DNA of 31,431 bases from Minisyncoccota bacterium (lineage in GTDB: Bacteria > Patescibacteriota > Minisyncoccia > UBA6257 > XYB1-36-10). Of the stretch, positions 24,834 through 29,592 are shown piece after piece. How positions within the stretch are numbered: the stretch's first letter is position 1; each line of letters starts with the position of its first letter. Where the stretch lies: NCBI GenBank assembly GCA_028709185.1, contig JAQVXM010000001.1, positions 1 through 31,431 on the forward strand, read 5' to 3'. The position numbers were made by a program, and so were the translations under genes. The notes under the pieces are model-generated. The model was not told the DNA's origin and made no database searches. It saw only the letters and a list, made by a program, of their open reading frames with translations.

Positions 24834-25544
24834 ATGAATTCGGAAAATTTTAAAAAAGAGGTGTATAGGATTTCCTATGCTTTGTTTATGGTTTCCGAAC
24901 AAATTAAAAGGGTTTCCGTGGCAAAGAAAATTGCCGAATACGCAGTTTTTTTATTAGAAGACGTATATAATAATGATTTAGATAAAGCTTTGAAAGATAA
25001 TGAATTTTTAAGCAGTTTGGTTTATTTTTCTTCTGACACTGGGTTATTAGATTATGAAGATAGAGAGGTTTTAATTGAGGAACTTATTAGTTTAAAGGAA
25101 GTAATAGAAAGAGAGAAAAAAGAAAATAGAGGAGCAAGGGAGTTTTTAAAAAAAGATTTATCAAGTCCACTTCCAATATTTTTAGGAAAAAGAGAGGGTG
25201 AAGAGAATGTTTTCTTTAAGGAAGGTATTTTAGATGGATCTGAATTATTAGAAAAAGACAAGGTTTTAATTAGTTCGGAATTAGGAAATTCGGAAATTCG
25301 GAAAGATAGTTCGGAAATTAGGAATTTAGAGAAAGCTTCGGATGGAACTTTAAAAAGGAGGGAAGATATATTAAACAGAATAAAGCAGAGCGGAATTTGT
25401 TTTTTAAAAGATTTGTCAGTTTTTTTCCCTAATTGCAGTGAAAGAACATTAAGATATGACTTAGAGTGGCTTTCGAAGCAAAAAAAAGTGGAAAAAATAG
25501 GAAGTAGCGGACCAGGAACATTTTATAGGGCAAAAATAGAATAA
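24834..25544 (+). CDS. Four-helix-bundle N-terminal domain plus C-terminal DeoR-type winged HTH (putative DNA-binding regulator)
   Basis: The C-terminus RREDILNRIKQSGICFLKDLSVFFPNCSERTLRYDLEWLSKQKKVEKIG fits the DeoR HTH pattern (SExTxRxDL). The N-terminus is helical. Confidence 0.7.
   Translation: MNSENFKKEVYRISYALFMVSEQIKRVSVAKKIAEYAVFLLEDVYNNDLDKALKDNEFLSSLVYFSSDTGLLDYEDREVLIEELISLKEVIEREKKENRGAREFLKKDLSSPLPIFLGKREGEENVFFKEGILDGSELLEKDKVLISSELGNSEIRKDSSEIRNLEKASDGTLKRREDILNRIKQSGICFLKDLSVFFPNCSERTLRYDLEWLSKQKKVEKIGSSGPGTFYRAKIE
25271..25324 (+). repeat. Intragenic array of 7-8-bp TT(C/A)GGAA(A) units
   Basis: Units at 25274, 25281, 25289, 25297, 25310 and 25318, in the linker between the two domains. 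Confidence 0.8.
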
Positions 25545-25677
25545 TAAGAAAAAATTTTTTAATTGATAACTTTTAGAAGAATATATAATAATTTTAATAA
25601 CTAAAGTAATAAAAAGGAGTAACTAAAAAGATTTATTTCCGTTTAATATTAATGAAAATCGGAAATTTTAGTAACTA

Positions 25678-25706
25678 TTGATTTTGATTGTCTGATTTGT
25701 TAATGT
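25678..25706 (+). promoter_or_regulatory. Candidate sigma70 promoter for the structured RNA element
   Basis: TTGATT-N17-TAATGT, with a TGn extended -10 at 25698-25700. Confidence 0.45.
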
Positions 25707-25856
25707 TAGGAACGGTTTTAGCATTTTAAATAGTGCTTAAAGTTCTTAGTGTGAGGCTGAGAACATAAATAAGAGGATATTTCCTCTTATTTAAAAGCTT
25801 TAGTTAAATAAAAATTTAACAAAGAAAAAAGCCTCGTTCTAAGAACGGGGCTTTTT
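25707..25856 (+). ncRNA. Candidate structured sRNA or attenuator leader upstream of the surface-protein gene
   Basis: Stacked hairpins (12-bp perfect stem 25766-25793; 7-bp stem 25803-25820) end in a terminator. A 17-nt upstream segment is complementary to the terminator arm. Confidence 0.45.
25826..25856 (+). terminator. Intrinsic terminator 157 nt upstream of the large surface-protein ATG
   Basis: AAAAAGCCTCGTTC-TAA-GAACGGGGCTTTTT with one G-U pair. Confidence 0.8.
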
Positions 25857-26013
25857 AAGTAAATGATATTAAAGGTTTGTCGCTTATTTAACCCTATCTC
25901 TTACCCCTCACAAGGTCAGCGGTTTGGTCGATAATTAGTTGCAAACTTTCCAGAAAATTATACATTATAAATTTAGAATTAATTACACTAGATAACGAAA
26001 AAAAGAAAGAAAA

Positions 26014-29000
26014 ATGAGTAAAAAATTGGTTTCTATAGCGCTTTCTTTAACTACTGTAGTTTGGCTTTCTGGAGCAGCAATGGCAGTTCCAGTAGCACAA
26101 GCTCAATCTACGACTGATTTGCAGTCACAGATTGCGGCTTTGCTTGCTCAAATACAACAGTTACAAGCGCAGTTAAATGCGGCAGGAGGTTCAACAACTA
26201 CGGGAACTTCAGTTGCATGCTCTTTCACCCGCTCCCTCACAGTGGGTTCGACAGGAGCTGATGTGAAGTGCTTGCAGCAATACCTTAATGCCAGCGGATT
26301 TACAATTGCCACGACCGGAGCCGGTTCGCCTGGAAATGAATCAACATATTTTGGTTCATTAACAAAAGCGGCGGTTGCTAAATGGCAAGCGGCAAAAGGA
26401 GTTTCTCCAGCAGTGGGATACTTCGGTACAATTTCAAGAGCCAAATATACTGAAATTGCTTCAACAACCACAACAACCGGAACAACAACTACAACAACCG
26501 GAACAACAACCACAACAACTACATCCGTAGGTTCAGGTTTAACAGTAAGTTTGGCATCGACTCAGCCAACAGCGGGTCTTTTCGGAGAAAATTTTGCCAG
26601 CAGACCTTTCACTAACTTAACCTTCAGAGCTTCAAGCGATGGAGATGTTACAGTTGATGAAGTGACTGTTGAAAGAACCGGACAAGGTGCTGATCAGGCT
26701 TTTTCCGGAACAGTTCTCTTAGATGAAAATGGAGTCAGAATCGGAGATGCAAAAACCTTTGGTTCGACACATAGAGCTCGCTTGACTGAAAATTTTGTGA
26801 TTAAAGCCGGACAATCAAGAACAATAACATTGGCCGGAGATTCTGATAGTGATCAGAATGATTACAATGGACAGCTTGTATCCCTCTCTCTTGTTGAAGT
26901 CAAAACAGTTGGTTCAACAACAGTGACGGCCAGCTATCCTATGACTGGAACAGTTCACACAGTTAACAGCACGCTTTCTATCGGAACAGCGACTTTAACT
27001 CGCGGACCATCTGATCCAGGATCAGGACAGACAAAGGAAGTGGGAACAACAGGATATTTGTTCTCAGCTCTTAAAGTGACTGCCGGATCACAAGAAGATA
27101 TAACAATGAAATCCGTGCAATTTAATCAATCCGGTTCAGCGGCAGAAACTGATCTTGAAAACGTAAAAATTTACGTTGATGGAACAGCTTATAATGCGAC
27201 TGTAACAGGAGATTATTACCAAGCTTCTCTTGGAAATGGAATTGTTATAACAAAAGGAAATTCAAAGGAAATATTAGTAAGAGGTGATATCGTCGGAGGT
27301 TCGGCAAGAACGATTGACTTCGATCTTTACCGCTACGCCGATGTTCAGCTTACTGGTAATACTTATGGTTACGGAATTCTTCCTTCAGCTTCAGAAGTAG
27401 CAGCTAGCGCTGATGATGGAAAATTCCACGCAGCTCAGCCAAATTTCGATGCTTTCGAGGTGACAGTTTCAGCTGGAACTTTGACAGTGTCTAAGGCTTC
27501 TTCAGTACAAGCTCAGAATATCGCCATTAATTTGTCCGATCAGCCTCTTGGAGGATTTGAAATCGATGTAAAAGGAGAGGATGTGTCGGTTGCTTCAATG
27601 ATATTCGGTCTTGATATAGCTGTTGATGGATCACCAGATGCAAGCAATATTACATCTATAACTTTGGTTGATGCTAATGGAAATGTAGTTGCGGGACCAG
27701 ATGACGGAGTTTCAACAGGAAAAGTAACTTTCTCAGATACAGTAACTTTCCCAGTTGGAAAACATATTTACACTTTAAAGGGAAAGATCGGAACTAGCTT
27801 CTCTAACGACCAGACAGTTTCGGCTTCGACTACTCCTTCGGGATGGTCAACAGTTAAAGGTGTAACAACCGGACAAACGATTTCCCCAACTCCTTCATCG
27901 GCAGTTGCGGCAAGTACGATGACAATAAAGGGAGCAGCGCTTTCTATTTCAACTTCAGCGACACCAGTTGCTCAATCAGTGGTTCGTGGCGTAACTGGTT
28001 TTACATTCGCTAAATTTGTTTTAGATGCGACTGGTTCCGGAGAAGATATTCGGGTAAATTCAATGTATCCGGAATTATCAACTCTTGGTACAGCTAATAC
28101 AGCTGATGACCTGACAAATTGTCAGATGTGGGATGGATCAACATCTCTTAATACAGGAACAAATATCGCTAATCCGACCAATAATAATGCGGCTGGAGAC
28201 GATATAACGGTTCTTTTTGACACAGGTCTTACAATTAGCAAAGGAACAACAAAGACTTTGGATTGGAAATGCGATATCGCGGCTAATGGAACTGGAACAA
28301 CTTACGCTTTCGGATTGGAAAATACAGCCGGAAGAGTGGTTTCAACCGGATTTACTTCAGGCCAAGATGTTACTGAAAATATTACCGATTCAAATGGTCA
28401 GATAATGACAATGGCGGGAGCAGGAGCATTAACAATCGCTCTTGATTCTTCAAGTCCTTCTTTGAAACTTGTTAATGCTAATACAACCAATAACATTATT
28501 TCGGCTTTGAAATTGACATCTTCTAATGAAGATATCAGTGTTTCGCAAATTTCTTTGCAGTTGACCAATACAGCTTCAAATACACCTCAGGACTTAGTAA
28601 AGGTGACTGGATGGTTGACGGGAGGAACGAGCGCAGTAGGAGAAGCGATCTTTGTCGGCGATTATGCCACAATGACTTTGACTGGAGTGACGATTCCTAA
28701 AAACAGCGATTTAGTCTTAACTCTTAAGGCAGATATCGCTCAGATGGGAACTGATCAGCCGGCCAGACCGGGACACACTGTAAAAGTTGACTTTGATACC
28801 GATGATAAAACCGGATCAAACAGCAATACAAAGGGTGTCGGATCATCTTCTGGAACAACAGTTTATGCTTCAGGAGCAGACACAGCTTCAAATGGAGTCA
28901 AGATCTATAAAGCAGTTCCGACTCTTGCTAAAGTTGATTTGTCATCCTCGGAGAGAACGCTTGTAGCCGGAACGAGAACACTTTATAAGTTCTCAGTTTC

Positions 29001-29592
29001 AGCTCCGTCAACCGGAGGAGTAGGACTTTACAAGTTCACTTTTGACACAGCGTCACAAGGAGGAGACTCAGCTATCTCTTACAGAACAACATCTTTCAAG
29101 GTTTACGGATATTCCGATTCTTCGTTTAGTCAGACAGCTTTCAACACCAGTGGACTGTTAAATAATGACGGTTTAGCGGTGTCTGGAGCGGCCTCAACCG
29201 GAGAATTTGAAGTTCGTTTCAATCCAGTAGCGGAAACTGGTTCAACGGCGGAAGCTATTCAGGTTCCAGCCGGACAGACCCGTTACTTCAAACTGGTTGG
29301 AGACGTAACCGGAAAGACTGCAACAACAACATTGAGTGTTAATCTCTTAGGGGATACCTACGCGATTAATTCGGCAATGACAGCTGGAGATGATAACTTT
29401 ACCGGAGCTAGCGCTGGAGCTTATGCTTTTGCGACAACAGCAACGATAATTCACTCGTCCGAATACAATAACTTTATTTGGTCAGATAACGCGACAACCA
29501 CTTCTGGTGTTTCAACTTATGACTGGTCAAATGGTTATTCAGTATCAGGATTACCATCAGCTGGTATGGATTCTGAAACTTTAACTCCGTAA
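26014..29592 (+). CDS. Large secreted peptidoglycan-binding surface (S-layer-like) protein, 1192 aa, with about six ~160-aa beta-rich repeats
   Basis: Signal peptide (AQA|), short coiled coil, PG-binding_1-type domain (FTRSLTVGSTGADVKCLQQYLN...YFGSLTKAAVAKWQ...GYFGTISR), Thr-rich linker and Ser/Thr/Gly/Asp-rich repeats. It uses many C-ending codons, unlike its neighbours. Confidence 0.85.
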   Translation: MSKKLVSIALSLTTVVWLSGAAMAVPVAQAQSTTDLQSQIAALLAQIQQLQAQLNAAGGSTTTGTSVACSFTRSLTVGSTGADVKCLQQYLNASGFTIATTGAGSPGNESTYFGSLTKAAVAKWQAAKGVSPAVGYFGTISRAKYTEIASTTTTTGTTTTTTGTTTTTTTSVGSGLTVSLASTQPTAGLFGENFASRPFTNLTFRASSDGDVTVDEVTVERTGQGADQAFSGTVLLDENGVRIGDAKTFGSTHRARLTENFVIKAGQSRTITLAGDSDSDQNDYNGQLVSLSLVEVKTVGSTTVTASYPMTGTVHTVNSTLSIGTATLTRGPSDPGSGQTKEVGTTGYLFSALKVTAGSQEDITMKSVQFNQSGSAAETDLENVKIYVDGTAYNATVTGDYYQASLGNGIVITKGNSKEILVRGDIVGGSARTIDFDLYRYADVQLTGNTYGYGILPSASEVAASADDGKFHAAQPNFDAFEVTVSAGTLTVSKASSVQAQNIAINLSDQPLGGFEIDVKGEDVSVASMIFGLDIAVDGSPDASNITSITLVDANGNVVAGPDDGVSTGKVTFSDTVTFPVGKHIYTLKGKIGTSFSNDQTVSASTTPSGWSTVKGVTTGQTISPTPSSAVAASTMTIKGAALSISTSATPVAQSVVRGVTGFTFAKFVLDATGSGEDIRVNSMYPELSTLGTANTADDLTNCQMWDGSTSLNTGTNIANPTNNNAAGDDITVLFDTGLTISKGTTKTLDWKCDIAANGTGTTYAFGLENTAGRVVSTGFTSGQDVTENITDSNGQIMTMAGAGALTIALDSSSPSLKLVNANTTNNIISALKLTSSNEDISVSQISLQLTNTASNTPQDLVKVTGWLTGGTSAVGEAIFVGDYATMTLTGVTIPKNSDLVLTLKADIAQMGTDQPARPGHTVKVDFDTDDKTGSNSNTKGVGSSSGTTVYASGADTASNGVKIYKAVPTLAKVDLSSSERTLVAGTRTLYKFSVSAPSTGGVGLYKFTFDTASQGGDSAISYRTTSFKVYGYSDSSFSQTAFNTSGLLNNDGLAVSGAASTGEFEVRFNPVAETGSTAEAIQVPAGQTRYFKLVGDVTGKTATTTLSVNLLGDTYAINSAMTAGDDNFTGASAGAYAFATTATIIHSSEYNNFIWSDNATTTSGVSTYDWSNGYSVSGLPSAGMDSETLTP
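26470..26511 (+). repeat. Two tandem 21-bp copies encoding the Thr-rich linker (TTTGTTT)
   Basis: ACAACAACCGGAACAACAACT followed by ACAACAACCGGAACAACAACC. The repeat is in frame. Confidence 0.9.

Follow-up and report, generated by a model that had tools for sequence, protein, structure and literature searches.

A putative termination switch with an invariant hairpin loop upstream of a surface-protein gene in Paceibacteria

We studied a 31,431-nucleotide (nt) stretch of DNA, hereafter the window, from a Minisyncoccota bacterium (GenBank assembly GCA_028709185.1, contig JAQVXM010000001.1, positions 1 to 31,431 of the forward strand) and asked what is encoded in the 469-nt spacer that separates a gene for a helix-turn-helix (HTH) protein from a surface-protein gene. 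A first-pass annotation, made without database searches, had described promoters, a terminator and alternative pairings within this spacer, and had proposed either a cis-acting attenuator of the surface gene or an independent small RNA (sRNA) of ~145 nt. Our favoured reading, to which we give a probability of about 0.5, is that the spacer carries an undescribed termination switch yielding an RNA of ~145 nt, and that an invariant loop of this RNA, GUGAGG, works by pairing with the motif CCUCAC. Devices of this kind (terminator switches, kissing-loop RNA pairs) are already known; the family, the loop, the tandem-promoter setting and the link to a surface protein of the Candidate Phyla Radiation (CPR) are new.

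The genome of the window (G000) comprises 0.73 Mb in 104 contigs and is 93.7% complete. Its spacer was compared with that of a second genome of the same genus (G001; 88% identity) and with more than 100 related Paceibacteria loci. A first set held 26 loci with complete upstream regions, obtained from surface-protein homologues; a second, independent set of 80 loci was fetched via the HTH protein, and the related records belonged to Candidatus Paceibacterota or Parcubacteria, including Liptonbacteria, Harrisonbacteria and Jorgensenbacteria. In this comparison the order of the module is conserved: HTH gene, promoter P1, hairpin HP2, variable hairpins, terminator, promoter P2, structured leader and surface-protein gene (Table 1).

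Table 1 Features of the spacer and its flanking genes, in window positions
Feature	Position	Strand	Description
Upstream HTH gene	24834..25544	+	236 aa, C-terminal DeoR-like winged HTH (Pfam HTH_DeoR)
Promoter P1	25678..25706	+	-35 TTGATT 25678-83, 17 nt, TG 25698-99, -10 TAATGT 25701-06
Predicted non-coding transcript	25713..25856	+	About 144-145 nt, P1 to terminator; from sequence reading and fold
HP2	25742..25764	+	5' arm GUUCUUAG, loop U-GUGAGG (25750-56), 3' arm CUGAGAAC
Antiterminator alternative	25742..25846	+	25742-25758 with 25830-25846, 16 of 17 positions; encloses HP3 and HP4
HP3	25766..25793	+	Perfect 12-bp hairpin in the variable internal region
HP4	25803..25820	+	7-bp A/U hairpin in the variable internal region
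Intrinsic terminator	25830..25856	+	10-bp stem (AGCCTCGTTC 25830-39 with GAACGGGGCT 25843-52), one G-U pair, loop UAA, U5 to 25856; ends 157 nt before the ATG at 26014
Promoter P2	25864..25872	+	Extended -10 box TGATATTAA, immediately after the terminator U-run
Long imperfect leader hairpin	25872..25949	+	Apical loop CCUCACAA 25906-13, closed by ACC 25903-05 : GGU 25914-16
Surface-mRNA leader	25881..26013	+	~133 nt; contigs X3, X6
GGUCGAU leader motif	25926..25932	+	Kept in most loci; GGUCGGU in some
Surface-protein gene	26014..29592	+	1192 aa, signal peptide, PG_binding_1 domain

The invariant hairpin and its terminator

Comparison of the loci shows a conserved RNA hairpin with an invariant loop. 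All 26 loci of the first set have HP2, at 205-615 nt upstream of the ATG, with the loop (U/A)GUGAGG, in which GUGAGG does not vary, on a stem that is specific to each lineage. In a gapless alignment of 27 columns (A2), built from these 26 loci of many families, 84.4% of the stem cells were paired against 60.2% after shuffling, and double changes were seen at all 8 pairs (61 cells). Covariation was 0.735 as compared with 0.279 in shuffled alignments, none of 500 shuffles reached as high a value, and sliding the partner abolished the signal. G-U pairs occupied 28 of the paired cells, which indicates selection on the plus-strand RNA and not on a DNA palindrome. The segment AGAAC (25760-64), pointed out in the first-pass annotation as able to hold the loop region, is the 3' arm of HP2.

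A covariance model built from the hairpin alignment (R1) was run on 151 genomes of the order, and 45 of the 55 matches at E<0.01 lay on the same strand and no more than ~800 nt 5' of a surface-gene homologue; about twenty of those 45 were in genomes outside the training set. The match in genome G093 was the same locus at a contig end. Among the loci fetched via the HTH protein, HP2 lay on the plus strand just 3' of the HTH gene in 66 of 80, and the surface gene came next after HP2 in 55 of 60 loci checked, the remaining five stopping at contig edges. Outside the order, a search of 150 genomes of the phylum (other orders and classes) gave no match up to E 0.001. The whole genome of the window holds a single GUGAGG-loop hairpin of the HP2 kind.

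Matches of R1 away from the locus (G115, G019, G122, G084, G064, G037 and G078) had no consistent context. The one in G037 is placed between mraZ and rsmH, and those in G122 and G084 follow FtsX-like permease genes. The locus L049 (G115, contig C4, 67800-72300, minus strand) carries a second GUGAGG-loop hairpin, of 30.6 bits, ~500 nt from the reverse-complement start, with a U-run directly after it; it lies ~2 kb 5' of a 23S rRNA-like stretch and no surface-protein gene adjoins it.

Across the loci the terminator is tied to the HP2 loop by a specific complementarity. In the window, where the terminator was found as first described, its 5' arm AGCCUCGU is complementary to the loop and two more bases. 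Under a strict rule of stem and T-run, terminators were called in 38 loci of the second set; in 35 of them the duplex of the 5' arm with UGUGAGGC reaches -8 kcal/mol. The background in the genome of the window was far lower: the 5' arm holds CTC[AG]C in 2 of 214 terminator-like hairpins, and 6 of the 214 reach -8 kcal/mol. The complementarity is specific and not a general property of terminators. The arms differ from CCUCAC mainly by changes that retain G-U pairing to GUGAGG, and G-U pairs account for 23 of 186 terminator stem pairs across loci. When the best partner of HP2 in the next 300 nt was sought blind to terminators, it overlapped the 5' arm of a U-run hairpin in 21 of 26 loci of the first set and in 34 of 55 of the second. 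In the terminator region of the window (25824-25856) the hairpin is preceded by an A-run and followed by a U-run, an arrangement that could permit termination in either direction; no minus-strand gene lies nearby.

The alternative pairing, in which the HP2 region and the 5' side of the terminator form one helix, was likewise present as described earlier: a 17-position duplex with 14 Watson-Crick pairs, two G-U pairs and one mismatch (U25750/U25838), whose -23.1 kcal/mol ranked 1 of 24 against unrelated loci. In the other loci the 3' arm of HP2 extends the helix by 3-5 nt into the bases just 5' of the 6-nt core. Positions 1 to 5 of this extension were paired in 89, 82, 80, 60 and 53%, respectively, and it was contiguous over at least 3 positions in 33 of 45 loci; in total it had 164 pairs against 148.6 in permuted sets, and none of 1000 permutations reached 164. 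Blocking the 3' arm of the terminator gave, in 44 of 46 loci, a minimum free energy (MFE) structure in which four or more of the six GUGAGG bases were paired to the terminator 5' region. The two folds differed in energy by a median of +0.5 kcal/mol (3 kcal/mol or less in 29 of 46 loci), and the equilibrium probability of the terminator helix was below 0.2 in 37 of 46. Because the folds are nearly isoenergetic in most loci, termination would depend on HP2 forming first and persisting, as expected of an anti-antiterminator. The layout of anti-antiterminator, antiterminator and terminator put forward in the first-pass annotation is conserved with covariation across the Paceibacteria order; as in a generic intrinsic-terminator attenuator, the terminator stands on the same strand between a promoter and the gene, and the mutually exclusive pairings are conserved.

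The genus of the window is an exception in that the pairing uses the 5' arm and the loop of HP2 (the 17-mer). Here the antiterminator is the MFE structure only for the nascent RNA ending at 25846, and the full-length RNA of the window prefers HP2 and the terminator by about 10 kcal/mol, with a terminator probability of 1.0. With the terminator fold so strongly favoured, the unit probably terminates by default in this genus, where switching appears doubtful from the folding models. In G001 one pair of the 17-mer (25748:25840) has changed from A-U to G-C with both local hairpins intact, a single event that constitutes weak evidence.

Promoters, transcripts and the surface-mRNA leader

The promoter noted earlier at 25678-25706, our P1, has a predicted start at ~25713 and is kept in G001, with TAGTAT as its -10 box. 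Within 75 nt 5' of HP2, 43 of 75 distinct loci had a promoter-like site (score of at least 9 of 13), as did 6 of 75 control windows. The distance from the end of the -10 box to HP2 is mostly 3-16 nt, a placement which puts HP2 at or near the 5' end of its transcript. Two smaller proposals had to be dropped because of the position of P1 and of a change from ATG to AGT in G001: the 8-codon upstream open reading frame (uORF) MLGTVLAF (25703-29), whose ATG is the one altered, starts 5' of the predicted start site, and TAGGAAC (25707-13), an alternative holder of the HP2 segment, is situated at or 5' of that site. Ribosome-mediated attenuation through a leader peptide was also rejected, the uORF being non-conserved and outside the transcript, and many loci leaving no room between the -10 box and HP2. 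Just 5' of P1 there is an inverted pair ATTTCCG...CGGAAAT (25635-25666), a possible operator through which the HTH protein would act on P1; TTCGGAAA-type repeats occur inside the HTH gene (25274-25324).

The predicted RNA of 25713-25856 contains neither ATG nor TTG, its sole GTG codons hit stops at once, and no plausible open reading frame was found in it. RNAfold predicted five hairpins for 25700-25862, with -58.9 kcal/mol and z = -8.3, and none of 200 shuffles was as good. Both perfect internal hairpins of the first-pass annotation are there. HP3 shows a compensatory change in G001 (A25774-U25785 to G-C) and is not kept between families; HP4 has an altered sequence in G001 and no counterpart in other families. 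The stretch from HP2 to the terminator varies from ~25 to >200 nt, in the number of hairpins and in sequence. The multi-way junction imagined around these hairpins did not survive the comparison, which revealed no conserved core; since the internal hairpins differ between loci in how many there are, how long they are and what sequence they have, an aptamer for a small molecule is unlikely. A riboswitch was rejected on finding no conserved ligand-binding core within the junction. A tRNA-like or T-box-like reading, suggested by the GAG codon in the loop, was set aside as well, T-box features being absent and the internal region variable, and no tRNA was found.

The surface mRNA has a separate start. 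The surface gene was expressed in three activated-sludge metatranscriptomes, and contigs of its mRNA with 100% identity start at 25881 (X3) and 25887 (X6), 9-15 nt past TGATATTAA, and run into the gene. As they begin after the terminator, the surface gene has its own promoter, P2. Of 46 loci, 25 have a GATA-type box 3-15 nt after the U-run; the rate in control windows was 23%. A promoter of its own had been foreseen for this gene, at 25939-25966; that site lies inside the transcript, and the -10 box is found instead at 25864-72.

The leader of this mRNA is ~97% identical to that of G001, exceeding the identity of the small unit. Its apical loop CCUCACAA holds CCUCAC, the exact complement of the HP2 loop GUGAGG. 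An exact CCTCAC was present between the terminator and the ATG in 50 of 55 loci of the second set, where ~6% is our rough estimate, not computed, of the chance expectation for a hexamer in such a region. CCUCAC lay wholly in a hairpin loop of the local MFE structure in 37 of 56 distinct loci, as compared with 18 of 336 neighbouring control hexamers, and no other convincing CCUCAC-in-loop site was found in a 5' untranslated region (5'UTR) of G000. The imperfect stem-loop marked earlier at 25871-25949 does exist, although as a whole it is no better than shuffles (z 0.2).

Between this hairpin and the ATG, a motif of the UCCAGAAA / UUCCGAAAU type is kept across families ~50-60 nt before the ATG; its copy in the window is CTTTCCAGAAAAT (25950-25962), which is similar to the TTCGGAAA-type repeats noted within the HTH gene and downstream of it. 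The 16S rRNA 3' end of G000 (contig C58, minus strand, ~2141 from the reverse-complement start) reads ...GUCGUAACAAGGCACGUGUAGCGGAAGCUGUGCGUGGAACAAUUAAAU and is without the CCUCC anti-Shine-Dalgarno tail, which fits the A-rich region 25995-26013, devoid of a Shine-Dalgarno sequence, before the surface-gene ATG. We discarded a Shine-Dalgarno mimic as the role of GUGAGG: the hexamer is not Shine-Dalgarno-like and the 16S 3' end of G000 has no CCUCC.

Proposed mechanism and rival explanations

In the favoured reading, P1 would start a short non-coding transcript whose 5'-terminal HP2 displays GUGAGG, and the HP2 loop with its adjoining bases could pair instead with the 5' arm of the unit's own terminator. 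Formation of HP2 and the terminator would release the RNA of ~145 nt, and the antiterminator fold would allow read-through toward the surface gene. The leader made from P2 would present CCUCAC in its apical loop, and the two loops would kiss. One option is that the terminated sRNA acts on the surface-mRNA leader; another is that the GUGAGG loop, occupied by the leader or by a protein, keeps HP2 closed and thereby sets the choice between termination and read-through. We infer that the unit is transcribed from P1, that termination is regulated and that the two loops interact. A more specific version, which we think quite unlikely as it stands, is an RNA-sensing attenuator: the CCUCAC of an abundant leader would kiss GUGAGG on the nascent P1 transcript, HP2 would stay closed and transcription would terminate, whereas with scarce leader RNA the loop would invade the 5' arm of the terminator and P1 transcription would read through into the surface gene, giving a homeostatic feedback comparable to the antisense attenuation of pT181 and pIP501. 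If this were true, an mRNA would control a back-up promoter of its own gene through a trans-encoded, same-strand loop-loop contact of 6 nt.

Several results weigh against the favoured reading. No RNA contig covered 25200-25880 in the three metatranscriptomes that contain the surface mRNA (X3, X6 and X7), a region that a DNA run covers completely, and words of 25690-25875 occurred in no RNA run searched. Nor was any contig seen to span the terminator, as read-through would require, among the assembled contigs (depth 3.5-7.6) to which this search was restricted; with such low depth and a possible loss of small RNAs from the libraries, these negatives are compatible with both a small RNA and read-through. 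The whole-duplex tests of matched against mismatched partners were only moderately significant, and the terminator fold is favoured by 10-18 kcal/mol in the window and G001. The loop-loop pairing gains no support from covariation, since both 6-mers are invariant, and a seventh loop-loop position is paired in 33 of 54 loci, where 29.9 would be expected by chance, again with no covariation. In a few families (e.g., locus L038) the CCUCAC hairpin is placed between the terminator and a P2-like box, so that CCUCAC is not always in the P2 transcript.

Both roles considered in the first-pass annotation were affected by these data. A cis-attenuator as the main control of the surface gene has lost ground, as the mRNA starts past the terminator and read-through was not seen; even so, a bistable terminator still speaks for termination being regulated. 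The architecture agrees better with a ~145-nt sRNA and a surface gene served by its own promoter; the weak point here is that the small RNA was not detected in the RNA runs.

Four explanations compete with the termination switch. The attenuator could work purely in cis, in the manner of PyrR: a protein bound to the HP2 loop, for which the HTH protein is a candidate, would force termination, P1 would read through without it, and the leader CCUCAC would be unrelated or would serve as a cis partner in the read-through RNA. The layout is identical to that of PyrR attenuators, the Rfam model RF00515 aligns HP2 to the binding loop, the terminator is bistable, and the position before the surface gene on the same strand is conserved; moreover, the HTH gene invariably adjoins the element, and its product has a weak match to the RNase R winged helix in 7 of 21 orthologues. 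We nevertheless regard this as rather unlikely, given that transcription of the surface gene begins past the terminator, from a conserved promoter, with no read-through seen, that no PyrR gene was found, that DeoR-type HTH proteins normally bind DNA and that the near-universal CCUCAC leader loop would be left unexplained. A second possibility is a plain trans-acting sRNA with GUGAGG as its seed for the CCUCAC loop of the adjacent mRNA leader; its complementarity to its own terminator would be incidental or would only mask the seed, and termination would be unregulated. The unit has, in silico, its own promoter and terminator, apart from P2, an invariant seed-like loop faces a conserved complementary target loop, and the terminator fold of the window is very stable (probability 1.0). 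A terminator helix that is a minority fold at equilibrium in most loci, together with a conserved antiterminator and its extension, would be unexpected for a constitutive terminator; same-strand adjacency is unnecessary for action in trans, and the RNA was absent from the RNA runs. We judge this possibility to be improbable to a similar degree.

The 6-mers might instead be DNA sites, operators at which the adjacent HTH regulator controls P1 and P2, the hairpins serving only transcript stability and termination. On this view HP2 has GTGAGG in forward orientation, the leader has it inverted, and the terminator contains it as an inverted repeat. The adjacent HTH gene is conserved, the motif is found in both orientations just past both start sites and 5' of P2, and the opposite orientation of the two sites has an even prior chance. 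The pattern of change, however, is the reverse of that of an operator, with an invariant centre and covarying arms rich in G-U pairs; changes in the terminator arms mostly keep G-U pairing with GUGAGG, both motifs are in apical RNA loops far more than control hexamers, and no such site precedes the HTH gene itself. This explanation thus seems very unlikely. The idea that the element has no dedicated function, so that the HTH mRNA simply ends at the terminator and the hairpins are chance or generic 3'UTR structure, could draw on the HTH gene, which ends 285 nt upstream on the same strand, and on the metatranscriptome contigs, which do not separate the units. It is hardly credible in view of the comparative data that contradict it: an invariant loop and covarying stems in >100 genomes, promoter motifs enriched directly before HP2 and a specific terminator complementarity.

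Resembling systems, significance and flanking regions

A search of the whole window against Rfam 15 gave no match at the gathering threshold, and the sub-threshold ones were driven by the terminator; nine orthologous loci at permissive thresholds returned only terminator-driven noise. The earlier statement that no known riboswitch aptamer is recognisable is borne out by this search. As no description of the module was found in the searchable literature either, we take it for a new family.

PyrR binding sites were considered and rejected. The window scored 24.3 bits with RF00515, whose gathering threshold is 54, and the nine orthologous loci gave no match at E up to 1; G000, at its 93.7% completeness, has no pyrR, and of its two ORFs with a Pribosyltran domain, both far below the PyrR cut-offs, one is ComF-like and the other unassigned. 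The likeness is in the layout: the anti-antiterminator is a hairpin at the 5' end whose conserved, purine-rich loop ends in GAGGCU, followed by an overlapping antiterminator and terminator, and the RF00515 model aligns ...GAGAGGCU in HP2 with GUGAGGCU of the PyrR binding loop. In contrast with that system, the loop here is GUGAGG and not CCAGAGAGG, the downstream gene codes for a surface protein and not for a pyr enzyme, and a second promoter follows the terminator.

In the antisense attenuation of plasmids pT181, pIP501 and pAMbeta1, and in the kissing of CopA/CopT and RNAI/RNAII, the regulatory RNA comes from the opposite strand and its complementarity is complete. As in these systems, a loop-loop contact could set the terminator fold of a leader, and the loops have 6-7 nt and are complementary; the target loop CUCA fits a YUNR U-turn pattern. 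The present case, known from sequence alone, differs in that both RNAs come from the same strand in tandem and share 6 complementary bases.

SreA and SreB, derived from SAM riboswitches, are dual-function small RNAs that originate from leaders. Rli51 of Listeria is described as another (PMC11394854). The resemblance is that a terminated 5' transcript could be both a cis attenuator and a trans-acting small RNA; those elements belong to the 5'UTR of the gene they regulate, and no promoter separates them from it, whereas here a conserved promoter follows the terminator and there is no conserved aptamer. A last group, the leaders of S-layer genes such as slpA of Lactobacillus and of Thermus, is thought to stabilise mRNA or to bind protein. 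These also precede a highly expressed surface gene and form a leader of >100 nt starting with a stable hairpin; we know of no upstream partner RNA with a complementary loop described for them.

Gene regulation in the uncultivated, ultra-small Paceibacteria of the CPR is almost uncharted, and most classical regulators are lacking; the lineage also appears to be without the 16S anti-Shine-Dalgarno tail. Against this background, a covarying RNA module is tied, order-wide, to what is probably the most expressed envelope protein of the cell. Its parts lend themselves to in vitro tests without culture of the organism: a pair of promoters, a terminator that is bistable, and two loops complementary to each other. 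If a loop-loop contact did control termination, antisense-mediated attenuation would extend from plasmid copy control to a chromosomal surface protein; at the least, the module provides a new RNA family for annotation resources and a marker of the order.

Orthologues of the HTH protein were encoded immediately 5' of the element in 24 of 27 loci (tblastn). The match to the RNase R winged-helix family mentioned above was weak, and a comparison of the HTH protein with PDB sequences gave no informative match. The element region is single-copy in G000, and a repeated or mobile element was dismissed for that reason. Homologues of the surface protein occur in 118 of the 151 genomes of the order. The part of the window that carries its gene (26001-29000) has 41-44% G+C and nearly zero GC skew, whereas G+C elsewhere in the window is 28-39%, with a positive skew that is very strong (0.2-0.45).

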